From the NCBI GenBank assembly GCA_031425015.1, contig JANPIM010000013.1, forward strand, positions 120,939 through 184,938: 64,000 nucleotides of DNA. The letters run 5' to 3'. How positions within the stretch are numbered: the stretch's first letter is position 1; every line of letters starts with the position of its first letter. The translations under genes and the position numbers were made by a program. This DNA comes from Segetibacter sp. (GTDB taxonomy: Bacteria; Bacteroidota; Bacteroidia; Chitinophagales; Chitinophagaceae). Positions 1 through 20,778 of this stretch are shown here, one piece after another. The notes below the pieces were generated by a model. The model saw only the letters and a list, made by a program, of their open reading frames with translations. It was not told the DNA's origin and did not search any database.

Positions 1-3000
1 ACAGGGATCACTTATAGTTTAGATGCAAGCAGTATTGCAGCAGGCAATAGCATAAATAGTTCAACCGGCATAGTTACCTACGATGTCAACTGGAACGGTA
101 CCAGTGTGATTACTGCAACGGCTACAGGATGTAATGGACCATCTACTTCAAGCCATACAGTCACGATAAATGGATTGGTGAGTGCACCTGTATTTACACT
201 TGGTGCTACCAGCGTTCGGTGCCAGGGTGCCGGTTCAGCAACCTATACTGCTACCTCGAACAACACCACCGGTATTACCTACAGCTTAAACGCTGCGAGT
301 GTTACGGGTGGTAACAGCATTAATGCTACCACCGGTGTGGTAACATGGGCGACAGGGTGGAGTGGATCCACGATCATTACTGCGAGCGCAGCCGGATGTA
401 GCGGACCACAGACTGCTACGCATACGGTTACCATAACTCCAACTTTAGGGGTTCCTGTTTTTGCTCTGGGCGCTACTTCTACCCGTTGCCAAACTGCGGA
501 AACGATCTCGTACAGTGCCACTGCCACGACCAATACTGGAATTACTTATAGCTTAGATGCTGCAAGCCTTTCAGCTGGAAACAGTATTGATGTAAACACG
601 GGTAGTGTAACATGGGCCAATACGTGGAATGGCACATCTACCATAACAACAAGTGCTACCGGATGTAATGGACCAAGAACCGCTACTCATACCGTAACCA
701 CCACCGGCCTTGTTTCTATACCAGTATTTACCCTCGGAGATAATTCTGCACGTTGCCAGGCAGGTGCTAACATATTTTATACTGCCACTGCTAACAATAC
801 TACCGGGATTACCTATTCACTTGATGCAGCAAGCATCGCGGCTGGCGTTACCATCAATACAGCAAACGGCAGAGTGAGCTACCTGGCAGGTTATGTAGGA
901 ACCGCGTTTATTACCGCAACTGCTACAGGTTGCGACGGTCCGCAAACTGCGACACACACCGCGGTTACAAGTGGCCCGGTTGCAATTCCTGTTTTCACTA
1001 TTGGGGCTACTTCAACCCGTTGCCAGGGAGCCGGTGTTGTTAACTATGCTGCTACTGCCCTATACACAACGGGCATTACATATACGCTTGATTTAACTAG
1101 CCGCAATGCCGGTAATACCATCAATGCTACTACCAGCGATGTTACTTATGTTGCTGGTTGGAGTGGAACTTCTACCATTACTGCAAGTGCTGCAGGATGT
1201 AGCGGTCCCAGGACATCAACGCATACAGTTACCATTACGCCAACAGTGGGTGTACCTGTGTTTTCGCTAGGCGCTACCAGTACGCGTTGCCAGGCTGCAG
1301 GCCTTGTTACGTATACAGCAACCGCTACAAATAACACAGGTATCACTTATAGTTTAGATGCACCAAGTATTGCTGCAGGAAATAGTATTAACACAGCTAC
1401 CGGCGCAGTATCTTATGTTGCAGGTTGGTCTGGTACGTCCATCGTAACTGCGATTGCCGCAGGTTGTAATGGACCTTCTGCTGCCGTTAATCACACCATC
1501 ACAATTACCCCAGTAGTTGGCACTCCTGTGTTTGCAGCTGGTACTACATCTACAAGATGCCAGGGTGCCGGTTCAACAACTTATACGGCGACTGCCATTA
1601 GTACATCAGGTATTACGTACAGTTTAGATGCACCTAGTATAGCGGGTGGAAATACAATAGTGGCTGCGACGGGTGCCGTAACTTTTGCTGCGGCGTGGAG
1701 TGGAACAACAATAATAACCTCCAGCGCTGCAGGATGTAGCGGGCCACAAACAGCTACGCATACTATTACCATTACACCAACAGTGGGTACGCCGGTGTTT
1801 GCATTAGGAGCGTCATCGTCACGTTGCCAGGCTGCAGGTACAGTTAGTTATTCTGCTACTGTCACAAATTCAACGGGCATAAATTTTTCCCTGGATGCTG
1901 CAAGCATTGCCGGAGGTAATACAATCAACCCAGCTACAGGTGACGTAACCTACCAGGCCGGTTGGAGTGGAACAACAGTGATTACAGCCACCGCTACTGG
2001 TTGCAATGGGCCCAGATCTGCTACCCATACCATTACGGTAAATGCGCCGGTTGTTTCACCCGTATTTACATTAGGTACTACTTCTTCAAGATGCCAGGGT
2101 GCAGGTACGATTGGCTATTCAGCAACTGCTGCCAACAGCACTGCTATTAACTATACAATTGATGCTACCAGCGCAGCAGCTGGAAATACAATTGTCTCCA
2201 CTACTGGTGCCGTAACTTATGTAGCAGGTTGGAGTGGAACAACAACTGTAACGGCAAGTGCCGCCGGATGTTATGGTCCCGTAACTACTATTCATACGAT
2301 CACTACTACAGCCACTGTAGGTACCCCGGTATTTACACTGGGAAGTACTACCACAAGATGCCAGGGTTCTGGTACTGTAACCTATACCGCAACTGCATCG
2401 TTCAACTCTGGTATCACGTATAGTTTAGATGGTGCGAGTGTCACTGGCGGTAATACGATCAATTCCTCAACTGGAATGGTTACGTATGTAAATACATGGA
2501 GTGGGACATCTACCATTACCGCATCAGCTGCAGGATGTAACGGACCAAGAACTGCCACACATACCGTTACGATTACGCCAACGGTTGGATTGCCCGTATT
2601 TGCATTGGGTGCTTCATCTACCCGTTGCCAGGGTATTAATTCGGTAACCTACACTGCTACTTCAACCAACAACACAGGCATTACATACAGCCTGGATGCT
2701 GCCAGTATTGCTGCAGGAAATTCTATTAATACGTCGACAGGTGCAGTAACTTTTGTCGGAAGTTGGAGTGGTACTTCAACTGTTACAGCAGACGCCACGG
2801 GTTGTAATGGTCCCAGAACTTCAACCCATACAATTACTACCACAGCGACTGTAGCTACGCCCATCTTTGCTTCGGGTGCTACCTCCGTTAGATGCCAGGG
2901 AGCAGGAAGCATAAACTACAATGCATCCGCATCATTTAGTACCGGCATCTCTTACACGCTTGACGCAGCAAGTGTCATCGCAGGTAATACAATCAACTCA

Positions 3001-4983
3001 TCTTCGGGTGTGGTAACATGGGTAACCACTTGGAGTGGTTCTTCAGTTGTTACAGCAAATGCAACAGGTTGTAATGGACCATCAACCGCCACGCATACAA
3101 TCAGCACTACGCCAACGGTAAGTACTCCTGTGTTTATGTTCGGGGCAACCTCATCTCGGTGCCAGGCAGCAGGAACGATTTCCTATACGGCTACCGCTAC
3201 CAATGCTACAGGTATTACCTACAGTTTAGATGCTGCGAGCATCACTGGGGGCAACAGTATTAATGCAGCAACTGGTGCCGTATCATTTGTTTCATCATGG
3301 AGTGGAACCACAACCATTACTGCATCTGCGGCAGGTTGTAACGGGCCAAGAACTACCACGCATGTTGTAACGATCAGCGCACCTGTAACTACGCCTGTGT
3401 TTTCATCGGGTGCTACCAGTACACGATGCCAGGGAGCAGGTACGATTACTTATACGGCTACGGCATCTAATACTACAGGCATTACTTACACTTTAGATTT
3501 TGGTAGCACCACAGCAGGCAATAGCATTAATAGTACTACTGGTGCCGTTTCCTATGTTGCTACCTGGAGCGGCATCTCCATCATTACTGCCAGTGCAGCG
3601 GGTTGTTACGGACCCATTATAGCGACCCACACAGTTACTACAAGTGCAACTGTGGGTACACCGGTATTTGGCCTCGGAGCAGGTTCAACACGTTGCCAGG
3701 GAGCCGGTACCGTTGCTTATACGGCAACAGCCGCATCGTCAACCGGCATAACGTATAGCTTAGATGCAGCAAGTATCACAGCAGGTAATTCTATTAACTC
3801 TGGTTCTGGCACAGTCACGTATACTGCAGCATGGTCCGGTACATCCATTATTACTGCAAGCGCGTCAGGATGTAATGGCCCGAGAACAGCAACACATACG
3901 GTCACGATTAATATCACAGTAATTACACCGGTATTTACGCTGGGCGCAAACTCGTCGCGTTGCCGTGGCGCAGGAGTAGTTAACTACACTGCGAACTCTG
4001 CAAATGCAAGCGGCATCACTTACTCACTTGACGGGGCCAGTATAGCCGCCGGCAACACAATCAATCCCACTACAGGCGACGTTACCTATGTAGGATCATG
4101 GAGCGGCACTACAACTGTTACGGCAAGCGCCGCGGGTTGTAACGGTCCGAGGACAGCTACACATGTGGTTAGCGTAAATAATTCTGTGGGTGTTCCTTCG
4201 TTTGCGCTAGGAGCATCATCTACCCGCTGCCAGGGAGGGACCACCGTTTCTTACACAGCCACTGCTGCATTTAGTACCTCCATTGTTTACAGTATTGACT
4301 CCATTAGTATCATCGCCGGAAATACTATTGATTCGGTTACAGGTGTTGTAACCTTTATTCCTCAATGGAGTGGTGCTTCTACTGTAACTGCCACTGCGAA
4401 TGGTTGTAATGGTCCCGCAATTTCAACTCATGTAATAAACACTACAGCTTCGGTTGGTTTGGTAACTTTTTCGTTTGGACCTACATCATCAAGATGCCAG
4501 TCGGCCGGCCCGGTATCTTATGCAGCTACCGCCTCCAGTGCTACAGGCTTTACTTACAGCCTCGATGGGTTTAGTATCATGGCTGGTAATACAATTAATT
4601 CTATTACCGGGGTGGTTACCTACACGAGTACATGGATCGGTACATCAATCATTACCGCAACCGCAAGCGGATGTAATGGTCCTTCGGTAGGTACGCATAG
4701 TGCTGTTACCAATGGTGTCATGGGCAGTCTTTCTTTTGCACTTGGAAGTGCTTCTACACGATGTAGAGGTGCAGGCATTGTTACTTACGTAGCTTCAGCA
4801 CCAAATGCTACCGGCATCACATTTACTTTAGATAATGCAAGCCTTGCTGCAGGAAATGTAATCAATCCATCTACGGGTGGAGTTAACTTTGTTTCTACCT
4901 GGAGTGGCACCTCAACCATCACCGCTACTGCAGAAGGTTGTACAGGACCACGAGTTGCCGTTCATACCATAACTACCACGCCA
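1..4983 (+). repeat. Intragenic tandem array of 267-nt (89-aa) repeats, 18 complete plus 1 partial
   Basis: The Arg codon of the RCQ/RCR motif falls at 217, 484, 751, 1018, 1285, 1555, 1822, 2089 ... 4759. The period is 267 nt with a single 270-nt unit. Confidence 0.95.
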
Positions 4984-7900
4984 AATACCTGCGCATTTAC
5001 CATGTTCGATAAAGCCACTATCGAACGAATACCCACGGGCTCTAAGATCATCAACATGGGTATAGTACCTCAAACTATCGGTAATGCATTGAAACCTTAC
5101 GGACTGGTGTACCAACTTCTGGCTAACCAGATACCGGTGCGATGGGTATTCAATCAATCGAAACTGAAGGATGGAGTTGATCTCGTTCACAATGGAATTA
5201 CCTACCGGGGAAGTGCCTTTATTATTACTGCGCCTTTCTTAACACCTGCAATCAATTCGTTGATTTCAACATGGGAGGCAAAGGGGGTGGTAGTAAATAC
5301 CACCTTATTCGCCTTTGATGTGGAAGTAGCGAATACATTAAGGAGTAAACCTTTTTGGGTGATGGATGACCAAAATGGAAACATAGCAGTAGGATTTTTG
5401 CAAAATGCTGAAATACCATCAACAGCGTACATTTTTAAAAGTCCTGCCCAGCTAAATAATTGTGATGATATCTATGTAATGCCACATGCCGATCCAACAT
5501 GGGAAACTCATAAAAATTTATATTACTGGAACCTAAGTAATAAGGGCGGTATTTGGGCAGGTTGTCATGCAGTGAGTGTGTTGGAAAACGTATACGGACC
5601 AGATACTGCAAATGCCGCTGTTACACGCCGAATGAATTTTCTTATGAATGACGGTCCGGGCATAGGCAACTCAGCAGTATTATTTAATGACCATGCGAAT
5701 GCTTCACCACCTAATAACCAGCAATATCCCGGTACTCCCGTTATGCAGTTTATGGGCAAAACTGACCTTGCACATACTGGTGGATCTGAACAGGTTTTTA
5801 TGCCTAACAAGGCAGGAAGCTGGAGAAGTTCTACAATGATTGGGGTATTTGATCCATCGCAGGCTGATGTTCCTGCATTATCAAATGGTCCGGCAGCACA
5901 AATTGCTTTTGGACGTGCATTTGGCGATGATCAGCGGGGCTGGGTTCTATACGAAGGCGGACACAATATCAATGTAAGCAACCCTGATGGAATAGCAGCC
6001 ATGCGGACCTTCCTTAACTTTGGCTTCTTTAGTATCAGGGATAAACAACCTTCTGTGGTTGTAAGTGGAGCACCCAAAATTGCGTACAGCGGTCAATCGT
6101 ATGCGCTTAATGCAGTGGCTTCATCACAGATATCGACCTATGTTACGTTTAGCTACGAATGGACATCAAATTGCGGAGGTGTATTCTCTAATCCTTATGG
6201 GGCTTCTACAACATTTATTGCACCTACCGTTGCTTCTGCAACGCCTTGTGCAATTACTTGTAAAGTGACCGACAACTGTGGAAGACTAGTATTTGAAACG
6301 AAACCGTTGACTGTAACACCGGGTCCTAAAGCGCCATTGTGTGCCAGCGAAACGGTTATATACAATCCTTGTGATGGTAATTACATGACGGTGGATGTAC
6401 TCGCTAATGACTCAGATCCTGACGGTGGTGCATTATCGGTAACACTGCTTACTTCGGGTACCAATGGCACTTTCACGAATAATGGTAACGGTACGATCAC
6501 CTATACTCCGGGGTATGCATTTTCAGGGTCAGACAAAGTAGATTACTCCGTTTGTAATCCGAATGGAATGTGTTGCACTGCTACACTTACCGTAAATGTT
6601 GCGTTGATGGATGCCAACGGGTGTAGTCCTGATGAGTACTACACGATCGTTGGTAATATTACAGCATTGCGTGGCACTAGTGTAGGGGGAACTGCTATTA
6701 CTACCATTGGTGCTTCTACCAGTGACCCTGACGGAATAGTGGGCAACGCGGCCACGTATGCACTATTCTCTAACAAAAATCATATTGTCAATTACGCATT
6801 AAGTGCGCCTATACCAAAGGCAGATACTTTATACTTTTATGTTGATGGATCAGCAAATGCAGCGTATACGGTAAGTCAGAGTTCAGACAGTTTAAGCTGG
6901 ACTAACCCTATTCAATTTACATTAACGGGAACGGAAAACTTCCTGGCCTCAAGGGCAAACGCCTACCCGGTTTCCGCCGGAATAAGGTTTATTAAGGTTA
7001 CTATTCAAACAACTTCTGTGCAAATAGATGCCATGCAATACTTCGTTAGAAGTTGTGTAAGCGCAGCACCCGTTTCAACAAACGATGATGTGCAGACGCT
7101 GGAAGACATGCCAGTGATTATAGAGGTTGACGCAAATGATATTGACCCACGTGGTTTGCCGTTGAGGATTGCCCAGATCGTAGTAAAGCCAAAATATGGT
7201 GCGCTATCCATTAACTTGAATAATACAATTACCTACCTCAATTACAAAGACCAGGTGGGCAATGGCAGAGATACCTTTGTTTATCGTACGTGCAATACCG
7301 CAGAATTGTGTTCATTGGATACGGTCTACATCACAATCATAAAAGATAACTGCGCGCCAGGCAAGTACCGCCCGGGAACCTATAGTGTCTATTCATCTAC
7401 AATAAATCCTACAGCAGATAATTATTTGCGGTTGAATAATAACGGGACCAATTACGGTAACAATAACTCCATTGTTATCAAAGGAAAATCCAATGACTTT
7501 AAAAGAGGCATTTTACAGTTCAATACTTCCTTAATACCAAGTAATGCCATCATTGATGTGGCCACTTTGCGCCTCTACCAAACCAGTGGACCAACTGATG
7601 AAGCTTTAAAGATCCATCGTGTTACAACTCCATGGGCGGAAATGACCAGTACATGGGGCAGAAACAACGCAACAACCTTTTGGACAAACCCCGGTGGTGA
7701 CTTCAGTAATGTAATTGTTGCTGCAGGATTCTTAACTGGCCCGACCAATAGTTATAAGAGTTTCAACATAAGATCGGTTGTACAGGATTGGGTAAGCCAG
7801 ACCTATCCTAATTACGGAGTGGTGGCAACACGCTACCCGGAGAATGCAGGCACCAGCGACATTACCTTCAACTCTGTACAAAATGGATCGAACAGGCCAT

Positions 7901-10900
7901 TGTTATACATATCGTACCGGGTACCACTTGCATGTACCGATATACCGGCCTATGCGCCTTTGGCTATGCCAGATACCGCCACTACCAATTCAGTTCAGCC
8001 GGTAACGTTAACGGTAATGAGTAATGATTTTGATTACAACAATACCGGTTGTTCGATTGCTCTGTTAGGCACTACTACCGCCAAAGGTGGCACTGTAAGC
8101 CTAACTGCGGGCAATAAGATATTGTATACGCCACCTGCAACTCTACCTTCATTCAATGGTGTAGATACTTTTTCTTACCGTATGATAAACGGCACCTTCT
8201 CTGATACGGCTAACTGCTTTGTACTGGTGACCAATGCGCCGCCCAAAGCAAATCCCGACAGCTATATTTTGCAGTCAAATACGGCAACTACGCCCACTTC
8301 ACTTTCAAACGCCAACATCAGGGTAAACGACTCAGATCCAGAAGGTGCGGCGCTCTCCCTTCCAGTGGTCATAAAAGATCCGCGTAATGGCATAGCCACC
8401 ATTAATGGGTCTGGCTTGTTGTCTTATGTACCAAACCTAAACTTTCTTGGAAACGATACACTTGCCTACGAGATAACAGAGATGGCTGGTAACGGTTGTG
8501 TCCGGTTTAGAGATACCAGTACTATTGTGATCACGATTACCAATCGTCCGCCAATATCTGTTAATGACAACTTCACCTCCAATGCCTGTGAGGCAGTGAG
8601 AATTTCGGTGTTGAATAACGATATGGATCCTGAAGCGGGCAACATGACGGTACAGATCGTGACCCAGCCAAGTATTGGTTCCGTTGCTGTTATAAACAAT
8701 AACTCGGAAATTCTCTTTACACCACCAAGCGGCATTAGTAATATCACTACCAGCTTTACTTATAGAGCTTGTGATAATGCTACTCCTTCACTATGCGGCA
8801 ACACGGTTACAGTAAACGTAACCATCAGGCCGCTACCTGCTATAAACACTTCACCAGTAGCCGTTCGCGATACTTTTAGAGTGCCCTTGAACAGTGTGCT
8901 GTACGCAGACGTATTAACCAATGATTACGACCCGGATAAGAATGATTTCAGGTTGCCACTAACCATTGAAACCAATCCAAAAAATGGTTCTGTATTGCCT
9001 CTTCAAAATGGCCTTATCCAGTACATTCCAAATGCTTCTTACTTTGGCCGCGACTCATTCCAATACCGTGTGTATGATACCATCATGTCTATTGGTGGTT
9101 GTCCTGCAGCACCGGCACTTAGTTCTATAACATGGGTGTACATCCTGGTGCAGGATAAACCCATTGCTAATTGGGATTTGGCCGTGACGAGCAAAAACAT
9201 CCCTGTTACCATTAATGTTTTGAATAACGATTTATTTGGTGCATGGGGTCCGGCCAATGGAACAATATCAATCGTAACTGCACCAACAAGAGGTGCTGTA
9301 TCGGTGCTTTCAAACGGGTCGACGGTGCAGGCAAACAATACCCTCTCTTACACGCCAAATACCAATTATTTCGGTAGAGATTCACTGGTATACCGTATCT
9401 GCGATGCGTTTGGTAATTGCGATACGGCAATTGTGTACATCAGAATAGGGAATGATTCTGATGGCGATGGCGTAGCAGACGAGATCGACATTGATGACGA
9501 CAATGATGGTATAACAGACTATATAGAAGCCTGTGGTGCAGGTGCTACATCCTTCTCTTGTACTCCTGCCGGAAGTGACCCTTCAGGTGATGAGGACAAT
9601 GATGGTATTTTAAATTTTAGAGATAGTAAATGGGCACCACTGAATAGCAATGGGTGCTCCATATTCCTGGACACTGATGGAGATGGAGTGCCAGATTACC
9701 TGGATTTAGACAGCGATAACGATGGTATTGCCGATGTGGTGGAAGCACTCGGTGTAGATGCAAATGGTGACGGTATAATTGATAACTACTGCGACACCGA
9801 TGCTGATGGACTATCGCAAAACGTGGATGCAAATAATACAGGAGCAATGGGTAGCGGTTTTGGTTTAGGTGCTCCTGATTTTGATAATGATGGTTTACCG
9901 AACGCAGACGATGTGGATAGCGACAACGACGGCATACCGGACATTGTTGAATCTTATGGACAAGACTTAAACAACGATGGCAGGATAGAAGTGTTCACCG
10001 ATACAGATAACGATGGATGGGCAAATCAATTTGACGGCGACGCAGATGGAAATGGCATCGTAGAGAACGTAGCAAATGTGCTCATTGTTACCGGAAACGA
10101 CCCTGCCTACATTAATTGTGCGAGTCCCGGAACTGGAAGACCAGGTTGCTATCCTTTAAATGGTAATGCAGACAATGTTGGATTTCCAAACTTTATTGAC
10201 CTGGACAGTGATGGCGATGGAGTTACCGATGCAACAGAAAGTGGTTTAGCCATAAGTTATAGCAGGGGAATGGTGTCGGGATGTTCTTTGGTCAATGGAT
10301 GGTGTTCTACCATTCGTTCATTGCCGGCCCTGAACTTACGCAATACAGATGGCCATGGTCGTCCTGATGTCTACGATATTGATAGCGACAACGATGGAAT
10401 TACAGATAATATTGAAGCACAACCAACCCACAGTTATATAATTCCTATTGATCTGGATGGAGATGGTGACGGGTTAATTAATGTGTACGACTTTTTTGGT
10501 GGCGTTGGAGGTAATGGATTAACCCCGTATGATCATGATGCGGACGGAGTGCCAGATTACCGGGATACCGATACCGATAATGATGGAGCGCCCGATAGAA
10601 ATGAAGGTGATTACAGGAACAAAACAATGACCCAGGCTTTGATCAATGGAGACCTTGATAGTGATGGTGATGGCCTGATGGATTGTTTTGACATCAATGA
10701 TATTCGTTCCGAACTGTGCGGTGTTGGTTTCACCAATGTGAGCATGAGCAACATGGGTACCAATGGAAACTTCAACGGCCCTGCTCCAGGCGGATCATCC
10801 GTTCAATTGGTTCGTTCTTCTCCAACAGCTCCGGACCGTGATTGGAGAAACACTACCACGCTTCCCATCAATATTATCAGCTTTACAGGCTCGCTAAATA

Positions 10901-11415
10901 ATAGCATAGCAACCCTGGTTTGGAAAGTGGAGAATGAGCAGGTGGTAGACAAGTATGTAGTGGAAAGAAGTATGGATGGGGTCAACTTTTCAGCGGAGGC
11001 AATCAGGTTGTCGAATAATCTACCAGCCACCAGCTATTCAGTAGCAGATGATCTTACAAACTATATACATCCGATTGTTTACTACAGGGTGCTACAGGTA
11101 AACAAAGACGGACAGCGTTACTATACAAAAACACTTTTATTTAACCTGGGCAAAACCATGGTGCTTACGCCTTCGGCTTACCCGAACCCGGTGATAGATG
11201 TATTGACTGTTGCTGTTCCTTCACTTACTCGTCAACAGGTTACTATAACATTGTCAGACGCTTCTGGTAAGACAGTATTGGTGAAAAAAGTTTACCTGGA
11301 AAAAGGAGACAACAAATTTTTAGTGGAAGGAGTAGAGCGACTTTCTAAAGGCCTCTATATGGTACAAATCAAAACAACGGATGTAACCACAAACATAAAA
11401 GTCGTTAAACAGTAA
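1..11415 (+). CDS. Giant T9SS-secreted adhesin-like protein (5'-truncated, >3800 aa): >=18 x 89-aa Cys-containing PKD/Ig-like repeats, ~350-aa unknown domain, PKD-like, ~7 cadherin-like/Big_9 domains, DNRLRE-type domain, thrombospondin type-3-like DxDxDG Ca-binding region, T9SS type A CTD
   Basis: Frame 1 is open from nt 1 (TGITYSLDASSIAAG...) to TAA at 11413-11415, so the gene starts upstream of the window. Recurrent PxAxxD...V..ND.D...G.....G...YTP...F.G.D.F.Y motifs (6330-9450). ADNYL...NYG...GILQFN..IP....I..ATLRLY (7390-7920). Many DxDxDG repeats (9455-10700). TLPINIISFTG then YPNPV...LSKGLYMVQI...KVVKQ C-terminus. Confidence 0.9.
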   Translation, partial: TGITYSLDASSIAAGNSINSSTGIVTYDVNWNGTSVITATATGCNGPSTSSHTVTINGLVSAPVFTLGATSVRCQGAGSATYTATSNNTTGITYSLNAASVTGGNSINATTGVVTWATGWSGSTIITASAAGCSGPQTATHTVTITPTLGVPVFALGATSTRCQTAETISYSATATTNTGITYSLDAASLSAGNSIDVNTGSVTWANTWNGTSTITTSATGCNGPRTATHTVTTTGLVSIPVFTLGDNSARCQAGANIFYTATANNTTGITYSLDAASIAAGVTINTANGRVSYLAGYVGTAFITATATGCDGPQTATHTAVTSGPVAIPVFTIGATSTRCQGAGVVNYAATALYTTGITYTLDLTSRNAGNTINATTSDVTYVAGWSGTSTITASAAGCSGPRTSTHTVTITPTVGVPVFSLGATSTRCQAAGLVTYTATATNNTGITYSLDAPSIAAGNSINTATGAVSYVAGWSGTSIVTAIAAGCNGPSAAVNHTITITPVVGTPVFAAGTTSTRCQGAGSTTYTATAISTSGITYSLDAPSIAGGNTIVAATGAVTFAAAWSGTTIITSSAAGCSGPQTATHTITITPTVGTPVFALGASSSRCQAAGTVSYSATVTNSTGINFSLDAASIAGGNTINPATGDVTYQAGWSGTTVITATATGCNGPRSATHTITVNAPVVSPVFTLGTTSSRCQGAGTIGYSATAANSTAINYTIDATSAAAGNTIVSTTGAVTYVAGWSGTTTVTASAAGCYGPVTTIHTITTTATVGTPVFTLGSTTTRCQGSGTVTYTATASFNSGITYSLDGASVTGGNTINSSTGMVTYVNTWSGTSTITASAAGCNGPRTATHTVTITPTVGLPVFALGASSTRCQGINSVTYTATSTNNTGITYSLDAASIAAGNSINTSTGAVTFVGSWSGTSTVTADATGCNGPRTSTHTITTTATVATPIFASGATSVRCQGAGSINYNASASFSTGISYTLDAASVIAGNTINSSSGVVTWVTTWSGSSVVTANATGCNGPSTATHTISTTPTVSTPVFMFGATSSRCQAAGTISYTATATNATGITYSLDAASITGGNSINAATGAVSFVSSWSGTTTITASAAGCNGPRTTTHVVTISAPVTTPVFSSGATSTRCQGAGTITYTATASNTTGITYTLDFGSTTAGNSINSTTGAVSYVATWSGISIITASAAGCYGPIIATHTVTTSATVGTPVFGLGAGSTRCQGAGTVAYTATAASSTGITYSLDAASITAGNSINSGSGTVTYTAAWSGTSIITASASGCNGPRTATHTVTINITVITPVFTLGANSSRCRGAGVVNYTANSANASGITYSLDGASIAAGNTINPTTGDVTYVGSWSGTTTVTASAAGCNGPRTATHVVSVNNSVGVPSFALGASSTRCQGGTTVSYTATAAFSTSIVYSIDSISIIAGNTIDSVTGVVTFIPQWSGASTVTATANGCNGPAISTHVINTTASVGLVTFSFGPTSSRCQSAGPVSYAATASSATGFTYSLDGFSIMAGNTINSITGVVTYTSTWIGTSIITATASGCNGPSVGTHSAVTNGVMGSLSFALGSASTRCRGAGIVTYVASAPNATGITFTLDNASLAAGNVINPSTGGVNFVSTWSGTSTITATAEGCTGPRVAVHTITTTPNTCAFTMFDKATIERIPTGSKIINMGIVPQTIGNALKPYGLVYQLLANQIPVRWVFNQSKLKDGVDLVHNGITYRGSAFIITAPFLTPAINSLISTWEAKGVVVNTTLFAFDVEVANTLRSKPFWVMDDQNGNIAVGFLQNAEIPSTAYIFKSPAQLNNCDDIYVMPHADPTWETHKNLYYWNLSNKGGIWAGCHAVSVLENVYGPDTANAAVTRRMNFLMNDGPGIGNSAVLFNDHANASPPNNQQYPGTPVMQFMGKTDLAHTGGSEQVFMPNKAGSWRSSTMIGVFDPSQADVPALSNGPAAQIAFGRAFGDDQRGWVLYEGGHNINVSNPDGIAAMRTFLNFGFFSIRDKQPSVVVSGAPKIAYSGQSYALNAVASSQISTYVTFSYEWTSNCGGVFSNPYGASTTFIAPTVASATPCAITCKVTDNCGRLVFETKPLTVTPGPKAPLCASETVIYNPCDGNYMTVDVLANDSDPDGGALSVTLLTSGTNGTFTNNGNGTITYTPGYAFSGSDKVDYSVCNPNGMCCTATLTVNVALMDANGCSPDEYYTIVGNITALRGTSVGGTAITTIGASTSDPDGIVGNAATYALFSNKNHIVNYALSAPIPKADTLYFYVDGSANAAYTVSQSSDSLSWTNPIQFTLTGTENFLASRANAYPVSAGIRFIKVTIQTTSVQIDAMQYFVRSCVSAAPVSTNDDVQTLEDMPVIIEVDANDIDPRGLPLRIAQIVVKPKYGALSINLNNTITYLNYKDQVGNGRDTFVYRTCNTAELCSLDTVYITIIKDNCAPGKYRPGTYSVYSSTINPTADNYLRLNNNGTNYGNNNSIVIKGKSNDFKRGILQFNTSLIPSNAIIDVATLRLYQTSGPTDEALKIHRVTTPWAEMTSTWGRNNATTFWTNPGGDFSNVIVAAGFLTGPTNSYKSFNIRSVVQDWVSQTYPNYGVVATRYPENAGTSDITFNSVQNGSNRPLLYISYRVPLACTDIPAYAPLAMPDTATTNSVQPVTLTVMSNDFDYNNTGCSIALLGTTTAKGGTVSLTAGNKILYTPPATLPSFNGVDTFSYRMINGTFSDTANCFVLVTNAPPKANPDSYILQSNTATTPTSLSNANIRVNDSDPEGAALSLPVVIKDPRNGIATINGSGLLSYVPNLNFLGNDTLAYEITEMAGNGCVRFRDTSTIVITITNRPPISVNDNFTSNACEAVRISVLNNDMDPEAGNMTVQIVTQPSIGSVAVINNNSEILFTPPSGISNITTSFTYRACDNATPSLCGNTVTVNVTIRPLPAINTSPVAVRDTFRVPLNSVLYADVLTNDYDPDKNDFRLPLTIETNPKNGSVLPLQNGLIQYIPNASYFGRDSFQYRVYDTIMSIGGCPAAPALSSITWVYILVQDKPIANWDLAVTSKNIPVTINVLNNDLFGAWGPANGTISIVTAPTRGAVSVLSNGSTVQANNTLSYTPNTNYFGRDSLVYRICDAFGNCDTAIVYIRIGNDSDGDGVADEIDIDDDNDGITDYIEACGAGATSFSCTPAGSDPSGDEDNDGILNFRDSKWAPLNSNGCSIFLDTDGDGVPDYLDLDSDNDGIADVVEALGVDANGDGIIDNYCDTDADGLSQNVDANNTGAMGSGFGLGAPDFDNDGLPNADDVDSDNDGIPDIVESYGQDLNNDGRIEVFTDTDNDGWANQFDGDADGNGIVENVANVLIVTGNDPAYINCASPGTGRPGCYPLNGNADNVGFPNFIDLDSDGDGVTDATESGLAISYSRGMVSGCSLVNGWCSTIRSLPALNLRNTDGHGRPDVYDIDSDNDGITDNIEAQPTHSYIIPIDLDGDGDGLINVYDFFGGVGGNGLTPYDHDADGVPDYRDTDTDNDGAPDRNEGDYRNKTMTQALINGDLDSDGDGLMDCFDINDIRSELCGVGFTNVSMSNMGTNGNFNGPAPGGSSVQLVRSSPTAPDRDWRNTTTLPINIISFTGSLNNSIATLVWKVENEQVVDKYVVERSMDGVNFSAEAIRLSNNLPATSYSVADDLTNYIHPIVYYRVLQVNKDGQRYYTKTLLFNLGKTMVLTPSAYPNPVIDVLTVAVPSLTRQQVTITLSDASGKTVLVKKVYLEKGDNKFLVEGVERLSKGLYMVQIKTTDVTTNIKVVKQ

Positions 11416-12998: not shown

Positions 12999-15900
12999 AT
13001 GAGCATTTTTACCCATGGTAGTAAATCCAAAGACAAAACAAATGCATCTTGTTGGTGGCATTCGATAAAAACACTGGCAGGTATATTTTTACCTGTAATT
13101 GCATTTTTATGTATTTGCACCAATGCCTTGTCGCAAGATTTGCCCAATCCGGCACCAAATAATAAAACGCTTGCAACAGGCAGTTTTGTAATTGCCATGG
13201 ATAACAACAACCAGTCAAATGGTGCCAATTATTTTAACCTGAAAGCCTACGGTTTAGTAGTCCATCTTTTAAACAATCAGGTAAAAGTAAAATGGATTAT
13301 TAAGGCTGGTAAAGCAAAGGACGGAATTGATTTTTCTGTAAATGCTTCCCGTATAAAACCTACTACTGCAGCAGGTTTGGTGCTCGATTTTAGAAGCGGG
13401 CCATTTGTGATTCAGAGTGCTGATGTTGCCGGAGTAAGTGCGTTGGTCGATGCTTATAATAATACATTGGCTGTAGCTGATCGTGTAAAAGTTTACCAAA
13501 CCAATGCTGCCGTTTTAGTAGATGAGCGATATGATCTTACCGGGTTTAAACCAAAAGCGGCTTTGCTCAATAATGGTGGAAATTGGGATATACATCGCGA
13601 CTTCTTTTTAGATGCCGGAATTACAGGTGGAATGAATACTGCAAACACTGCAGCAACCAACTGGAGCAAAGCCATGGCAGCTGATTTACTGAGCTCTTGC
13701 TACACATTTGCCTCAGAGGCACATTGGGAGCAATCAAAAGAAGTGGAAGCCAAGGCTGCCACAGATGCTGTAAAAGCTTTTTTAGTTGCAGGCGGTAATG
13801 CCTTGGCAGAATGTGCTGCAGTACGCACTTATGAAAATGCGGGTCGTTTTCATTCTACAGGTGGTATTAATTCAGCTACCGAAAATAAATTTAATGGAGC
13901 ATTATCTACGTTAGTTTATCCGAATGCTGATCTAAGTTATACACAGTTTCAAGGTGCTATTAATATTGATAATGGAGGAAGTTTAAAAAACTGGACTTAT
14001 AGTGGAAGTTTAAAAAACAACCAGCATGACCATGTGAGAGGACCTGTTGCCAATCCTAATATTGGCGCAGCTGTTTCTAAATTATCAACCGCAGGTAAAG
14101 GTGGTTTAATATTTTACCTGGGAAATCACAAATTTGATAATCAAAAAGATATTACCGTCATCAATGGTGAGAGAATGTATTTAAATGCATTTCTAACACC
14201 ATCTAGAAATAATACCTGTACAAGCGGGGGCGGGGGAAGCTTGAAGTTGGGTAACCAGGTATGGAACGACTATGATGGAGATGGTAAAAGAGACTTGAAT
14301 GAACCAGGTATTGCAGGTGCTACTATTACTTTATATACCGATAATGACAATAATAATTTACCGGATGGTGAGGGTATTGCAACAACTACAACCGATCAGT
14401 TTGGAAAATATGCTTTTACCAATCTTGCACAGGGCAGGTATATAGCTTCTATGCCTATTTTACCTGGATATACGCAAACTCCTAATAATACCACCGGAGG
14501 CATAGTAGGTGCACTAAAGCCTGGATGTTGCAGCCTGGATCCCGATGCTAATATTGATAATGATAATAATCTTGTTCGTCTTGTTGGACCAAATGGACCA
14601 GGTGGCGTGGTATATACTAATGGAATTACGCTTTCTGAAGGTGGTGAACCTACCACTGATGGTGACGATGCTAATAGTAACTTAACCTTAGACCTTGCAC
14701 AATGCGGTAATGGAGCCATTGGTGATTTTGTATGGAATGATTTAAATGGCAATGGCATACAAGATGCCGGAGAACCTGGTATTAATGGTGTAGTAGTACG
14801 TATCACCTATAGCGATGGCACCTTTGCAGAAGAAGCAACGCATAGTTATAATGGGCAGGATGGATATTACGATTTTGTAAACCTGGGCCCTGGTACTTAT
14901 GTCATTTCATTTACAAATCCGCCAGGATTTATACCCGGCCTTGCTAACCAGGGATCGAATGATGCCATTGACAGTGACCCAGTAAATGGCAGCGTAACTG
15001 TAACACTAACACACAATCAAAGCGATTTTACCATTGATGCTGCATTTATTCAAAATGGTATCCAGGCTAATTTAACCACAGGTAACCAAGTGTGGAACGA
15101 CTATGATGGCGATGGAAGAAGAGATTTGAATGAGCCTGGAATTCCCGGTGCCACTGTACGGTTGTATAGGGATAATAACAATGATAACTTACCCGATGGT
15201 GCACCAATTGCTACCACTACTACAGATGCTAATGGTAAATATTTATTTACTAACCTAAGCCAGGGAAGGTATATAGCTTCCATGCCAATACTGCAAGGTT
15301 ACCAGCAAAGTCCAAATACTGCTACCGGAGGTGTTATAGGTTCACCACAATCAGGTTGTTGTAGTCTTGATCCGGATCAAAATATTGATGATGACAATAA
15401 CCTTGTAAGATTAGTAGGTCCAAATGGTGTAGGGGGGGAATTGTATACAAATGCTATTATCCTGAATCCAGGCCAGGAGCCAACTAATGATGGCGATGAT
15501 GCAAACGGAAACTTAACACTTGACCTGGCTCAGTGCGGTGTCTTCTTCATCGGCGATTTTGTTTGGAATGATTTAAACGGAAACGGTATCCAGGATGCAG
15601 GTGAAGGTGGATTAAACGGTATTACTGTTCGCATCACTTTTTCAGATGGCACAATAGGCGAAACAACTACAGCCACCTCCAACGGGCAAGATGGATATTA
15701 TAATTTTAGAAATCTTGGTCCAGGTACGTATGTTATCAGTTTTCCTGCTATTCCAGGATTTACGCCTAGTCCTGCAAACCAGGGCAGCGACAGGGAAAAA
15801 GACAGTAATCCTGTGAATGGATCTACTACTGTAGTAATAAGCAATGCAAGCGATTTTTCTGTGGATGCGGGTTATGTGCGAACAGTTAATGCATGTACTT

Positions 15901-18900
15901 TCACCGTAAATTTGGTTTCGCAGGTAATGCCTACTACAACTAACTATGATGGCTCCGTTACAGTAAGCTTTTTAGATATGGTTCCACCATATTCCTACAC
16001 CATTCAAAAGGGCCAGAATTCAGGAGGATATGTGACCATACGTACTGTAACCAATCAAACTGCTAATCCACTTACTATAAGTGGCCTGAACGATGGTTTT
16101 TACTGGGTAAGCTTTATAGATAGCCGGGGATGCACTGGAATGGTAGATCCAGATCTGCAAATACAATGTACGACCATAGGAGGAACCTTAACAGCAGGAA
16201 AAATCAATTGCATAAATGGTCTTACTACCCTTACTGCAAACGTTACTGGCGGAAGCGGTACTTATCAATACAGTTTAGATGATATTACTTTTCAGAATAG
16301 TAGTATTTTCACGGTACCTGCAGGCACCTACTCAGTTTATGTTCGCGATTTTAATAAAGGTTGCATTAAACTTTTGCAGCCAATTACCGTGCTACCGGGA
16401 AATACAAATTGCAACGAAATTTGCTTAGTTAGCCCTACTATTCCCAACATTGTAAATGCGAAACTAAGATGGGTGACCAATGCAGATGGCACCATTACCA
16501 TCCGCAGCACATTTGCCAAAACTTTTGTTGACAATACGTATGGCACCAATGCTATCGGATGGGGTACCAAAGGTCATACATTCAGCAATCTTGTTGGATC
16601 AGACCATGTACAACTTGCCCTGTTTGATAATTCAAATACAAAGAAGCTTGAGTTTAAGCTCGATTATATTACTGCTTCCAATACGGCACCTTCAGGTTAT
16701 AAAACATTAGGCGTATTGGGTGGCGAAGGCCAGATGATTCTAGGTAATGCTTCGGATGTAGTAAGTGTGCGCACATCCATTGACTCAAACCTCAATGGCT
16801 TTGGATATGTGCTAACCACCAACTCCCCGGTTACTGATTTAAATTATACGCCTAATCCATCCTATCCAAATTGGATATTCGAGGTATGGTACGAGGTAAC
16901 TGTAAAAGCCAGTGCATTTGGCACGTCAGGATTTAAAAATCCGATGATAGCTTCAGTACATGCAAGTCCAAGCAAAACGGGCAACAACACAGAAGTAGTA
17001 GTACCGGGCGATTGTCCCACAACGGGTTCAATTGGCGACTTTGTATGGAGCGATCTAAACGGGAATGGCATACAGGATGCCAACGAACCAGGATTAAGTG
17101 GTGTAACGGTAACCTTAACTGCAGCCAATGGAACGATACGCACTACCACTTCAGGTAGCAATGGTCAATATTTATTTTCAAACTTACCAGCCGGCACTTA
17201 TACCGTTACGTTCAGCACCCCTGCGGGCTTTGCTGCTACACTTAGCAACCAGGGGAGTGATGATGCTAAAGACAGTGATCCGATAAATGGATCAGTTACT
17301 GTAACATTGGCTGCCGATCAAAGTAATCTTACAATAGATTTTGGTTTGAAGGTAATTTCAGATTGTCCTCCGGGCCAAATTGGTGGAATTCAGCTTTCTA
17401 ATTTAACTAAACAACTGTTTGTATTTACTGACGGTAGCGTAGACGCCAATTGGCAAAGCGCATCCAAAGGATATGTTGGGGACGTAGCAATTGATGGTTT
17501 AAAAGCTTCTGAGAGAACTTCAGGAACTGTACCTTATTCAGGAACTATCTCTACTAACGACAATACTTTGAGTAGCTGGCAGAAAATTGTAAATGATAAT
17601 CCTGGACAGGCATTTTCTTCTTTAAACCAATCAACTAAAATAAATTCTTTTAGAACTGAACTTGAAAATGCTTTTGCACAAATAAATGCCTTCCCTGCAA
17701 GTGCTGGTTATTCAAGTGTTTCCGCTTCATCATTAAATGGATTAAACACGCAAGATGGGGTAGCACAAACATTTGTAATTAATGTTACCAGCGGGTTTGG
17801 AGTATCTTCTAAAATAAATATTACTGGCGATGCAAATGATATTTTCATTCTACGTTGGGATGAAGATGCGAACTTTAGCAATGGTTACAATGGGCAGGTA
17901 AAGTTTCAGAGTGGCGGTGCTATTGTACCTATGGGTGGATTGAAGGCTTCTAACTTCATTCATGTTGCTGGGGATATTAATAGTAGCGGCGGCGGTTCAA
18001 CACCTAATTCTCCTTACCCACAAGGGCCACGTAAAAACAATGGTACCGGAGATCTTATAAACGGTGGTAGCGACTTTAATGGTGGTGGTTTCTTTACAGG
18101 ATACTGGTTAACTACCGGTGCGCCTACCATTACAGGGTCTGGACAGCCTTATGGAGAAACATCCTCTTTAAGCAACGGAATATTTGTGGGTGGATGGTAT
18201 TCAAAAACTACTAAGTTCAGTATGACTTCTGGCACAAGTGGTGTTTATGTAGCTCCTGCCCCATGTGTCCCAACTTCTAAAGGTAAAATCGGTGATTTCG
18301 TTTTCAACGATGTAAACGGAAACGGCATTCAGGATGCTGGTGAACCAGGTTTACCTAGTGTAACCGTTACTTTGACTTTACCCAACGGATCTACACAAAC
18401 CACTACTTCAGGTAACAATGGACAATATGCATTTTCTAATTTACCTGCAGGTACTTATACAGTATCGTTTAGTACACCTGCGGGTTTTGTTGCCACATTG
18501 GCCAACCAGGGTTTTAATGATGCCATAGACAGCGATCTAAATGCGGATGGAGAAGTAGAGGTAACGCTGGCGCTGCCATCTGCAACTTCGCCAAACACAA
18601 GTAGCCTAAATGTAGATGCTGGTTATTACAACCCGGGTTTACGTCAACAATCTTCACCAGCGTTTACCTTCTGCGATCTTAAAGTTGCACTTGAATTAAC
18701 ACATCCATTGTGTAGTGGTCACGTAACCGGTAAAATAATGTCGAAAGTAACCGGCAATACAAATGCGCTTACGTACAGTTGGAGCAACGGAAGCACAGGT
18801 GCAAACTTGTTAGCAGTTGGAGCGGGAACATACACGCTTACGGTGCAGGAAAATGCTACTGGATGCTCAGTCACCTCTAAACCAGTTGAGTTGAAAAATC

Positions 18901-19916
18901 CCGCAAAGATGTTGGTGACATTGTCAAGTCCTCAGCAACAAGGATACAACGTGACGTGCAAAAACAGCGCGACCGGTAATATAGAATTGAAAGTAAAAGG
19001 TGGAGTGGGTGACTATAGCTATAGCTGGAATACTGGAGCGACCACTGCTTACCTCACCAATGTACCGGCGGGCAAGTACACCGTAGTAGTAAAGGATGAA
19101 GCTCAATGTCCTGTGCAAAAAAGCATCAACTTAACGGAGCCTGCAAACAGTGTTTCAATAGAATCAATTGTACGTTCCATTGATTGCAATAATGCAAACG
19201 GATCGATTGCTGTGAAAGTAACCGGTGGCCTAGCTCCATACCGTTACATGCTTAATGGAGTAGCCGCTACTTTCAACATGCAAAAACTTTCGGCAGGAGT
19301 TTATTCGATAACTGTAATAGATGCTTTGGGTTGTGAAAAAACAAAAACAGTTGAAGTAAAAGATAACCGACTGCAGGTGATGGTGACAGCCGACAGGCAT
19401 ACACTGGTAGCTAGCTCAGGCATTACTTCTACTACTTTGAATGCTGAAGCTATTGGTGGTACGGGCAAGTATACTTACACCTGGAATGCAAACGAAAGTT
19501 TGCAGGCGAACGGAAATGCTAAAGCCACAGTACATCCTGCCACTACTACTGATTATACCGTAACTGTGCAAGATGAAGTCGGTTGCAAAGCAACGGCAAG
19601 CCTGACTGTAAAAGTGATGGCAGAAGTGATAGCGGCTAAGGTGCCTGCTGCTCCTGTGGTGGTGATAGAAAGTATGAAGGTGTCGCCTAACCCTACCAAT
19701 GGTATTTTCAATGTACTGTTGAACGGATTTGCAAATGGTAAAGTAGAAATTCGGGTATTGGATGCCAACGGAAAAGAGGTAGCCACCAAACAACTAAATG
19801 TTGTGGGAGAGATGCAAAGTGTGCCGTTTAACCTGATGAAAATGTCGAGAGGAATGTATTTCATTCACGTGGTAACTGCTACGGGATCGTTCCAGGAGAA
19901 AGTGCTGATAAAATAG
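12999..19916 (+). CDS. Large T9SS-secreted surface protein (2305 aa): signal peptide, unknown ~350-aa domain, 6 SdrD-B-like domains, SprB-like repeats, unknown ~200-aa domain, DUF3494/choice-of-anchor-like beta-solenoid, PKD-like, T9SS CTD
   Basis: Six G(N/D)(Q/F)V(W/F)xDxxG(D/N)G..D..EPG motifs (SdrD_B signature). C-terminal YSWSNG..G..L..V.AG.Y.L.V.D...C repeats (SprB-like). SPNPTNG.F...SRGMYFIHV...EKVLIK CTD. Signal peptide ending ALS-Q. Confidence 0.9.
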   Translation: MSIFTHGSKSKDKTNASCWWHSIKTLAGIFLPVIAFLCICTNALSQDLPNPAPNNKTLATGSFVIAMDNNNQSNGANYFNLKAYGLVVHLLNNQVKVKWIIKAGKAKDGIDFSVNASRIKPTTAAGLVLDFRSGPFVIQSADVAGVSALVDAYNNTLAVADRVKVYQTNAAVLVDERYDLTGFKPKAALLNNGGNWDIHRDFFLDAGITGGMNTANTAATNWSKAMAADLLSSCYTFASEAHWEQSKEVEAKAATDAVKAFLVAGGNALAECAAVRTYENAGRFHSTGGINSATENKFNGALSTLVYPNADLSYTQFQGAINIDNGGSLKNWTYSGSLKNNQHDHVRGPVANPNIGAAVSKLSTAGKGGLIFYLGNHKFDNQKDITVINGERMYLNAFLTPSRNNTCTSGGGGSLKLGNQVWNDYDGDGKRDLNEPGIAGATITLYTDNDNNNLPDGEGIATTTTDQFGKYAFTNLAQGRYIASMPILPGYTQTPNNTTGGIVGALKPGCCSLDPDANIDNDNNLVRLVGPNGPGGVVYTNGITLSEGGEPTTDGDDANSNLTLDLAQCGNGAIGDFVWNDLNGNGIQDAGEPGINGVVVRITYSDGTFAEEATHSYNGQDGYYDFVNLGPGTYVISFTNPPGFIPGLANQGSNDAIDSDPVNGSVTVTLTHNQSDFTIDAAFIQNGIQANLTTGNQVWNDYDGDGRRDLNEPGIPGATVRLYRDNNNDNLPDGAPIATTTTDANGKYLFTNLSQGRYIASMPILQGYQQSPNTATGGVIGSPQSGCCSLDPDQNIDDDNNLVRLVGPNGVGGELYTNAIILNPGQEPTNDGDDANGNLTLDLAQCGVFFIGDFVWNDLNGNGIQDAGEGGLNGITVRITFSDGTIGETTTATSNGQDGYYNFRNLGPGTYVISFPAIPGFTPSPANQGSDREKDSNPVNGSTTVVISNASDFSVDAGYVRTVNACTFTVNLVSQVMPTTTNYDGSVTVSFLDMVPPYSYTIQKGQNSGGYVTIRTVTNQTANPLTISGLNDGFYWVSFIDSRGCTGMVDPDLQIQCTTIGGTLTAGKINCINGLTTLTANVTGGSGTYQYSLDDITFQNSSIFTVPAGTYSVYVRDFNKGCIKLLQPITVLPGNTNCNEICLVSPTIPNIVNAKLRWVTNADGTITIRSTFAKTFVDNTYGTNAIGWGTKGHTFSNLVGSDHVQLALFDNSNTKKLEFKLDYITASNTAPSGYKTLGVLGGEGQMILGNASDVVSVRTSIDSNLNGFGYVLTTNSPVTDLNYTPNPSYPNWIFEVWYEVTVKASAFGTSGFKNPMIASVHASPSKTGNNTEVVVPGDCPTTGSIGDFVWSDLNGNGIQDANEPGLSGVTVTLTAANGTIRTTTSGSNGQYLFSNLPAGTYTVTFSTPAGFAATLSNQGSDDAKDSDPINGSVTVTLAADQSNLTIDFGLKVISDCPPGQIGGIQLSNLTKQLFVFTDGSVDANWQSASKGYVGDVAIDGLKASERTSGTVPYSGTISTNDNTLSSWQKIVNDNPGQAFSSLNQSTKINSFRTELENAFAQINAFPASAGYSSVSASSLNGLNTQDGVAQTFVINVTSGFGVSSKINITGDANDIFILRWDEDANFSNGYNGQVKFQSGGAIVPMGGLKASNFIHVAGDINSSGGGSTPNSPYPQGPRKNNGTGDLINGGSDFNGGGFFTGYWLTTGAPTITGSGQPYGETSSLSNGIFVGGWYSKTTKFSMTSGTSGVYVAPAPCVPTSKGKIGDFVFNDVNGNGIQDAGEPGLPSVTVTLTLPNGSTQTTTSGNNGQYAFSNLPAGTYTVSFSTPAGFVATLANQGFNDAIDSDLNADGEVEVTLALPSATSPNTSSLNVDAGYYNPGLRQQSSPAFTFCDLKVALELTHPLCSGHVTGKIMSKVTGNTNALTYSWSNGSTGANLLAVGAGTYTLTVQENATGCSVTSKPVELKNPAKMLVTLSSPQQQGYNVTCKNSATGNIELKVKGGVGDYSYSWNTGATTAYLTNVPAGKYTVVVKDEAQCPVQKSINLTEPANSVSIESIVRSIDCNNANGSIAVKVTGGLAPYRYMLNGVAATFNMQKLSAGVYSITVIDALGCEKTKTVEVKDNRLQVMVTADRHTLVASSGITSTTLNAEAIGGTGKYTYTWNANESLQANGNAKATVHPATTTDYTVTVQDEVGCKATASLTVKVMAEVIAAKVPAAPVVVIESMKVSPNPTNGIFNVLLNGFANGKVEIRVLDANGKEVATKQLNVVGEMQSVPFNLMKMSRGMYFIHVVTATGSFQEKVLIK

Positions 19917-19935
19917 TTGATGTGTTTTAAATGGT

Positions 19936-19972
19936 AATGGCCTGCGGCGTAATGCTGTGGGCCATTTTATTT
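19936..19972 (+). terminator. Intrinsic terminator after giant protein 2
   Basis: AATGGCCTGCGGC-gtaat-GCTGTGGGCCATT (G-U pairs) then TTATTT. Confidence 0.65.
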
Positions 19973-19993
19973 ATAGTGCTTTTGACAACCGGG

Positions 19994-20650: not shown

Positions 20651-20668
20651 GCTCTTTTTTTAAGAGCG

Positions 20669-20676
20669 CAAAGATA
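20669..20676 (-). promoter_or_regulatory. Bacteroidota sigma-A -7 element for hxpB
   Basis: TATCTTTG on the minus strand (consensus TAnnTTTG), ending 18 nt upstream of the ATG. Confidence 0.6.
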
Positions 20677-20742
20677 GGTGGACACATGGCTTAGCTCTTG
20701 AAGGATCTATTGAGATGAAATGAGGTAAAAAGGCTGGGCAAT

Positions 20743-20778
20743 AAAAAAGGACGGCAGTTTTTAAACTGCTATCCTTTT
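20743..20778 (-). terminator. Terminator after SIMPL gene
   Basis: Minus strand AAAAGGATAGCAGTTT-aa-AAACTGCCGTCCTTTTTT. Confidence 0.6.

Follow-up and report, generated by a model that had tools for sequence, protein, structure and literature searches.

A 64,000-nucleotide stretch of contig JANPIM010000013.1 from Segetibacter sp. (assembly GCA_031425015.1, forward strand, positions 120,939 to 184,938), referred to here as the window, carries two very large open reading frames (ORFs), ORF1 and ORF2, that share a domain of about 350 residues (Table 1). Both frames end in a type A C-terminal sorting domain (CTD) of the type IX secretion system (T9SS), as do most of their homologues. The N terminus of ORF2, read directly from its sequence, resembles a signal peptide; that of ORF1 lies outside the window. 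To judge from its sequence, ORF1 is a giant T9SS cargo protein, and its Big_9/cadherin-like repeats are of the "tandem-95" type. The shared domain is found at about residues 2880-3250 of the full ORF1 frame (copy 1) and near the N terminus of ORF2 (copy 2). The genome has four copies of the domain, in giant open frames of 5030, 2307, 2213 and 1873 amino acids (aa); three of them are N-terminal, and ORF1 is among the rare internal cases.

The preliminary description of this DNA, made from the letters alone, had proposed that the two proteins share an uncharacterised domain of this size. ORF1 contains the motifs ALKPYGLV...KDGVD (nucleotides 5086-5181), GSAFII (5209-5226) and GGIWAGCHAVSVLEN (5545-5589, with the Cys codon at 5563), and ORF2 contains NLKAYGLV...KDGID (13236-13331), SGPFVI (13395-13412) and GGNALAECAAVRTYEN (13791-13838, with the Cys codon at 13812). 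All of the motifs and both Cys codons quoted in that description were in place; the position 13160 from which it began the domain in the second protein is out of the ORF2 frame. A BLASTP comparison of copy 1 with copy 2 covered no more than 57 residues at the N terminus (42% identity, E 8e-10), which could be taken to favor a chance or low-complexity match between two repetitive adhesins. That idea was ruled out, and retains practically no probability, by the profile built from 116 copy-1 homologues, which retrieved copy 2 at E 4e-19, by an hhalign comparison of the two subfamily alignments that reached a probability of 99.8% (E 1.3e-27) over 301 columns with both cysteines paired, by twelve invariant columns in a joint alignment of 115 sequences that recur in both subfamilies, and by the same fold in the models of both copies. 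These comparisons at the sequence level confirmed that ORF1 and ORF2 share one domain of about 350 residues, far above chance.

The domain is real, widespread and unnamed, and it has no family model. Neither copy matched Pfam (E<=1), NCBIfam or the PDB sequences, a profile of 20 family sequences found no match among the PDB sequences, and a Pfam scan of 20 family members at E<=10 matched no family. A literature search on T9SS with GATase-like (glutamine amidotransferase-like) or ThuA-like domains found nothing on the present domain family. When 1.84 billion representative proteins were searched exhaustively with a profile, the family comprised about 1,950 clusters (50% identity) at E<=1e-3; at the stricter E<=1e-30 the number was 963. 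In 130 of 140 newly found representatives, the domain begins no further along than residue 130, and in the other 10 it is internal; no protein has two copies. The lengths of these 140 proteins lie between about 360 and 4,735 aa, with 43 of them above 2,000 aa. Nearly all homologues of copy 1 (about 640 aa) and of copy 2 (about 565 aa) are made up of a signal peptide, the domain, a short central segment and a T9SS CTD. Across the family, the partner domains are Big_9/cadherin, PKD, CBM96/disaggregatase-related, beta-helix, OmpA and T9SS CTDs. In their source records, the homologues are called "hypothetical protein," "OmpA family protein," "T9SS type A sorting domain-containing protein" and similar; the annotation as asparagine synthetase B, which the preliminary description had mentioned as unverified, does not occur among the source names of the 240 homologues listed.

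The named hosts include Niastella, Flavihumibacter, Flavisolibacter, Ferruginibacter, Puia and Segetibacter within the Chitinophagaceae, and Lewinellaceae, Arcicella and Salegentibacter outside that family. In an even sample of the phylum, the domain was detected in at least 4 of 301 genomes, all from the order of the window's genome, a lower bound because of the loose first filter. A scan with a single protein for related loci returned six loci. Two close homologues carry labels from outside the Bacteroidota, one from a Methylophilus rhizosphaerae metagenome-assembled genome (66% identity) and one from Dolichospermum sp. (P0028, 52% identity); mis-binning of Bacteroidota contigs is the most likely explanation for both, rather than transfer.

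The fold of both copies was predicted with AlphaFold2 from family alignments, with a predicted local distance difference test (pLDDT) score of 93.9 and a predicted template modeling (pTM) score of 0.91 for copy 1, and values of 90.2 and 0.90 for copy 2. Foldseek searches of the PDB placed almost all of the top matches of both models, each independently, in the class I GATase-like superfamily; a fold of another kind would, according to the preliminary description, have refuted its proposal. With copy 1, the best matches were the ThuA-like entries 4JQS, 4PXY and 1T0B (E 9e-4, probability 0.99), and further matches were the GH42 middle domain, which the copy 2 model also retrieved, ADC synthase, CTP synthase, the amidotransferase domain of GMP synthetase and Pdx2. 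With copy 2, 1T0B ranked first (E 8.5e-5, probability 1.00) and levan utilisome chain 8aa2_G second (E 1.2e-4), and the list continued with a Pyrococcus horikoshii GATase and Escherichia coli PabA (template modeling (TM) scores of 0.58 and 0.60, normalized to the target), lin1909, PurQ, CarA, SpuA and the C26-type gamma-glutamyl peptidase 1. Target-normalized TM-scores were 0.45-0.60 over the superfamily matches and 0.53-0.60 for 2d7j, 8rp0_B, 2a9v and 3fij. The TM-score on the query was only about 0.32 because the domain has about 150 extra residues, that is, about 350 residues versus about 190-240 for the class I GATase core. Sequence comparisons gave no signal: hhalign of the family against alignments built from the genomes of relatives returned probabilities of 0.6% for ThuA and 0.2% for TrpG, and nothing for a mixed GATase alignment. 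The link to amidotransferases therefore rests on the fold. Taken together, these results support a predicted class I glutamine amidotransferase-like fold, much enlarged, within which no sequence family can be assigned.

Conservation was counted over 374 full-length domains. Gly48, Lys68, Asp74, His176, Cys202 and Gln263 are present in all of them, and Cys168, Glu209, Gly275, Gly327, His335 and Arg349 in at least 99%. According to the DSSP assignment of the copy 1 model, strand 171-174 leads to Pro175-His176 and helix 181-194, strand 197-201 to Cys202 and helix 204-209, and strand 328-332 through Gly-Gly to His335 and then to helix 342-362. Copy 2 has the same order, with His193, strand 218-222 followed by Cys223 and helix 224-233, and strand 321-325 followed by His328. 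The putative Cys elbow of the preliminary description is thus borne out in both copies at the level of secondary structure and spacing. The positions of the catalytic residues in triad amidotransferases are established, and in the TrpG sequences of relatives IILSPGPG is followed by a helix and ILGVCLGHQ, and later by GVQFHPES and another helix; between the end of the core strand and the Cys there are 28 residues in the domain and 29 in TrpG. By analogy, the models suggest that Cys202 is the residue of a nucleophile elbow, that His335 corresponds to the catalytic His of triad amidotransferases, and that His176 occupies the place of the oxyanion-hole Gly in the SPGPG of TrpG/PabA-type amidotransferases.

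The preliminary description had instead followed DJ-1/PfpI proteins in pairing the Cys with a His, and it took this His to be retained in protein 1 and lost from protein 2. This part of the proposal did not hold. The adjacent His203 is present in 242 of the domains (65%), is Ala in ORF2 and is absent from the subfamily of ORF2, and the 50 matches listed for each model included no DJ-1/PfpI entry. The invariant His residues are instead His176 (PHADP) and His335 (GGH); ORF2 keeps both, as His193 and His328, and is therefore not degenerate. Hence ORF1 and ORF2 both carry the full Cys/His/His site.

Table 1. Positions of the features described in the text (nucleotides of the window).
Feature	Position	Strand	Description
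ORF1	1..11415	+	C-terminal 3804 aa of a 5030-aa open frame that starts upstream of the window
Parts of ORF1, in order			About 19 tandem 89-aa repeats, shared domain, Big_9/cadherin-like, DNRLRE/CBM96-like, Asp-rich repeats, type A CTD
89-aa repeats of ORF1	1-4950		Residues 1-1650 of ORF1 in the window
Domain copy 1	5008..6066	+	HMM (hidden Markov model) envelope; residues 17-369 of P0003; inside ORF1
Asp136	5365..5367	+	After strand 133-136; 95% conserved; changed in the dead-site clade; candidate third site residue
Cys168	5461..5463	+	372/374; three residues ahead of strand 171-174; retained where Cys202 is lost
His176	5485..5487	+	374/374; MPHADP motif; two residues past strand 171-174
Cys202	5563..5565	+	374/374; between strand 197-201 and helix 204-209, nucleophile-elbow position
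Gln263	5746..5748	+	374/374; vMQFmG motif on a long well-ordered insertion; retained in the dead-site clade
His335	5962..5964	+	373/374; three residues past strand 328-332, seven ahead of the C-terminal helix
DNRLRE/CBM96/disaggregatase-related domain	7414-7911	+	ORF1 residues 2472-2637
Asp-rich DxDxDGxxD run	9433-9831	+	ORF1 residues 3145-3277
T9SS type A C-terminal sorting domain, ORF1	11179..11394	+	PF18962 E 7.8e-9; TIGR04183
PAP2-superfamily phosphatase gene	11521-12411	+	E 1e-16
ORF2	12999..19916	+	2305 aa: signal peptide, shared domain, six SdrD-B-like repeats, SprB repeats, type A CTD
Domain copy 2	13149..14225	+	Residues 2-360 of P0002; divergent subfamily; directly after the signal peptide
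His193 of copy 2	13722..13724	+	Equivalent of His176
Cys223 of copy 2	13812..13814	+	Equivalent of Cys202; strand 218-222/helix 224-233
His328 of copy 2	14127..14129	+	Equivalent of His335; after strand 321-325
T9SS type A C-terminal sorting domain, ORF2	19683..19910	+	PF18962 E 3.4e-14
Segment compared with Niastella caeni (ORF2 and genes behind it)	12999-24603		HAD hydrolase, acyltransferase, 4HBT thioesterase, proline dehydrogenase and SIMPL/DUF541 genes

A natural experiment on this site is provided by a divergent member from the phylum sample and four orthologues of the same genus, 55-75% identical to it, which we call the dead-site clade. In all five, His176 is replaced by Asn, Ala or Thr, Cys202 by Ser and His335 by Asn, Asp or Gly, and the changes extend to Met33, Lys45, Gly85, Asp136, Leu165, Ala204, Ser276 and Val329. 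Lys68, Lys70, Asp71, Asp74, Cys168, Glu209, Gln263, Trp288, Arg349 and Asn353 are retained, together with the other members of the invariant set, and the frames are intact (831-875 aa), with a type-B-like C-terminal domain. Among ten other divergent relatives from related genomes, Cys202 and His176 are kept in all ten and His335 in nine; the tenth has Asn at the 335 position, where the alignment is doubtful. Because His176, Cys202 and His335 are lost jointly, the three form one functional unit. Residues 33, 136, 176, 202 and 335 lie at or just past the C-terminal ends of core strands; in alpha/beta enzymes, this is the region that houses the active site. From the sequences of the five proteins we also concluded that the domain probably keeps some function without the Cys/His/His site. 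The dead-site member is the only copy of the domain found in each of its five genomes.

A Cys that was unconserved or bound in a disulfide would have spoken against the elbow. Cys202 was present in every domain counted, and a disulfide with Cys168 is unlikely, since Cys168 is kept in the five orthologues with Ser202 and since the two domains with Thr168 keep Cys202. In agreement with this, the DSSP assignment puts Cys168 and Cys202 at opposite ends of neighboring strands; Cys168, lying ahead of a strand start, is at the opposite edge of the sheet, which likewise makes the disulfide unlikely.

The same three residues could be read as Cys-His-His ligands of a metal (Zn, Fe or Cu) in a metalloenzyme or a metal-dependent binder. 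Three invariant soft ligands at neighboring strand ends that are lost as a set would suit such a site, His176 in place of the oxyanion-hole Gly would be unusual for a nucleophile mechanism, and ligation would shield an extracellular Cys from oxidation. However, the fold matches listed offer no structural or sequence precedent, the Cys occupies precisely the nucleophile-elbow position and has the canonical His as its partner, and a fourth ligand is not evident, Asp136 being Asn in ORF2 and in 14 other domains. We consider a metal site distinctly unlikely.

The invariance of both Cys202 and Gln263 raises a question about covalent adhesion, since the chemistry of amidotransferases is an attack of Cys on a Gln side chain. 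An amidotransferase-derived module in which Cys202 and His335 act on the domain's own Gln263, or on a Gln or Asn of the target, would yield a thioester or isopeptide; it would give T9SS fibrils covalent links with surfaces or with one another and would be a Gram-negative equivalent, though unrelated in fold, of the thioester and isopeptide domains known from Gram-positive adhesins. This is very improbable. Its narrower form, in which Cys202 attacks the internal Gln263 to give an intramolecular thioester that is later captured by a nucleophile of the target surface, is no likelier, even if a head on an anchored stalk with SdrD-B-like repeats does parallel the Gram-positive adhesins: Gln263 is retained in the clade that lacks Cys202 and hence has a Cys-independent role, and the fold is unrelated to known thioester domains.

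The reading that we tentatively prefer, and to which we give slightly less than an even chance, is that of a surface-displayed enzyme with Cys202 as nucleophile and His335 as base. T9SS cargo with a type A CTD is anchored by its C terminus, and with its N-terminal placement the domain would thus be the distal head of a surface fibril. Bacteroidota carry the domain once per protein, mostly right after the signal peptide of a long T9SS cargo. The predicted active-site-like crater would lie at the C-terminal edge of the central sheet and bring together in space the Cys202 elbow, His335 and, at the oxyanion-loop position, His176, with Asp/Asn136 and Met33 on neighboring strand ends. His335 would activate Cys202, which would attack an amide or ester bond outside the cell, the substrate belonging to a surface, to the matrix or to the envelope of the cell itself.

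Several points weigh against a thiol enzyme. The canonical Glu at His+2 is absent, position 337 being hydrophobic (Ile, Phe, His, Leu or Tyr) and never a conserved acid; the TM-scores are modest (about 0.32 on the query and 0.45-0.60 on the target), and no sequence profile ties the family to any amidotransferase family (hhalign below 1%; Pfam at E<=10 with 20 members). Cys202, His176 and His335 are grouped in the models by topology, that is, by secondary structure, spacing and co-variation, and not by measured distance. Extracellular proteins are a place where a free catalytic thiol is easily oxidized, and no substrate can be named. The dead-site clade retains the domain under selection, so that the domain has some value without the site.

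The close fold relatives, moreover, include non-catalytic domains. Besides the GH42 middle domain, these are the levan-binding domain of a surface glycan-binding protein (SGBP) of Bacteroides thetaiotaomicron, which is ThuA-like (10.1101/2022.08.15.503959), the N-terminal carbohydrate-binding module (CBM) of Agd3, which is GATase1-like, lacks the Cys-His-Glu triad and has conserved aromatic residues instead (PMC7229062), and the middle domain of PelA, which is similar (10.1101/2024.06.28.601253). The shared domain might then be a non-catalytic GATase-fold head at the tip of the fibril that binds glycans or mediates adhesion, with the invariant polar residues lining the crater. That GATase1/ThuA-like folds bind carbohydrate on secreted or surface proteins is consistent with this view, as are the second rank of levan utilisome chain 8aa2_G for copy 2, the partners, which are adhesin stalks and polysaccharide-related CBM96/DNRLRE and beta-helix domains, and the retention of Lys68, Asp74, Glu209, Gln263, Arg349, Asn353 and several aromatic residues in the dead-site clade, which could form a surface independent of Cys and His. 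Nevertheless, the Cys and the two His are invariant at triad positions and are lost only jointly, whereas the Agd3 CBM has no triad; its kind of crater, free of catalytic residues and lined with aromatics, is not what was found here, where the Cys and both His at the crater positions never vary. A Cys/His/His pattern suits a catalytic or metal site better than a sugar-binding platform, and the domain is never repeated within a protein. A purely binding head is therefore rather unlikely in our view. The domain is predicted to represent a new version of the class I GATase-like fold, much enlarged and extracellular, that is set apart by its invariant Cys/His/His site.

The remainder of ORF1 within the window begins with the 89-aa repeats, of the pattern GITYSLDAxSIAAGNxIN...C.GP...H.V...PVF.LG..S.RCQG with two Cys per repeat. 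These repeats matched nothing in Pfam or NCBIfam, and further ones are probably present upstream of the window, where the frame extends for 1,226 aa. Downstream of the shared domain lies the DNRLRE/CBM96/disaggregatase-related domain; an unrelated representative, P0248, also pairs the shared domain with a DNRLRE/CBM96-type domain, which hints at a link to polysaccharides. The Asp-rich run that follows is of the thrombospondin type 3/Ca-binding kind, with NCBIfam matches to MtsC and BamM below threshold. The gene for a PAP2-superfamily phosphatase separates ORF1 from ORF2.

In Niastella caeni, a family member of 640 aa (positions 8001-9923 of the locus compared) is followed by the genes for a HAD hydrolase, an acyltransferase, a 4HBT thioesterase and a proline dehydrogenase. 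The same four genes trail ORF2, together with an extra SIMPL/DUF541 gene. The same genomic slot thus holds a 640-aa protein in Niastella caeni and two giant genes (5030 and 2305 aa) here, which indicates that the slot was expanded in the window's genome.

T9SS cargo makes up the main surface and secreted proteome of the Bacteroidota, and to our knowledge the heads of most giant T9SS fibrils have no assigned function. The present domain, which has no family model, heads about two thousand protein clusters, and its complete and strictly conserved Cys/His/His crater is predicted to be extracellular, a setting in which no task for an amidotransferase is obvious. As an enzyme, it would represent a new extracellular family of thiol hydrolases or transferases on adhesin stalks; as a binder, it would enlarge the small set of lectin-like modules with a GATase fold. 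In both cases, its roughly 350 aa make a defined target that can be expressed, there is a small natural form (about 565-640 aa), the point mutants to make are obvious, and the dead-site clade supplies a natural control.

Among known systems, the ThuA-like proteins (PF06283; 1T0B, 4JQS/4PXY) are the best Foldseek neighbors of both models. They share a common alpha/beta core with the domain and, in the sequences from relatives, a conserved elbow residue and a GH after the late strand. However, the domain gave no match to the PF06283 profile, which makes ThuA a structural neighbor only, and the window's genome has no ThuA gene. ThuA proteins are about 210-240 aa long and, in the sequences seen, have a GIH elbow that lacks Cys, whereas the domain has about 350 aa, of which about 150 are insertions, carries the Cys/His/His site and is exported on T9SS cargo.

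The triad GATases (PF00117: TrpG/PabA, GuaA, CarA and PyrG) and the C26 gamma-glutamyl peptidases have the same fold as the domain, and the order and spacing of the triad enzymes, from the core strand through the oxyanion loop, helix, strand, Cys and helix to the late His, are also those of the domain. In contrast to them, the domain has His176 in place of the oxyanion Gly and no Glu at His+2, and no sequence homology was detected; with no PF00117 profile match and an incomplete Cys-His-Glu triad, it cannot be assigned to that family. Since the domain is extracellular and has no synthase partner, a role as ammonia donor is implausible. DJ-1/PfpI proteins (PF01965) share the fold at the superfamily level and the elbow Cys, and the first subfamily has an adjacent Cys-His as in PfpI; the adjacent His of the domain, however, is found in 65% of the members only, and PF01965 gave no match.

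The GATase-fold binders, that is, the levan SGBP's C-terminal domain, the Agd3 CBM and the middle domain of PelA, resemble the domain in belonging to secreted or surface proteins. The cited passages on the levan SGBP and PelA domains describe no catalytic site, whereas the present domain has its invariant Cys/His/His. Finally, the heads of Gram-positive adhesins (MSCRAMM A-regions and thioester domains) stand in the same order of signal peptide, one head, SdrD-B-like or Ig-like stalk and sorting signal, but their fold is unrelated, and they are anchored through LPXTG and sortase rather than through a T9SS type A CTD as in ORF1 and ORF2.

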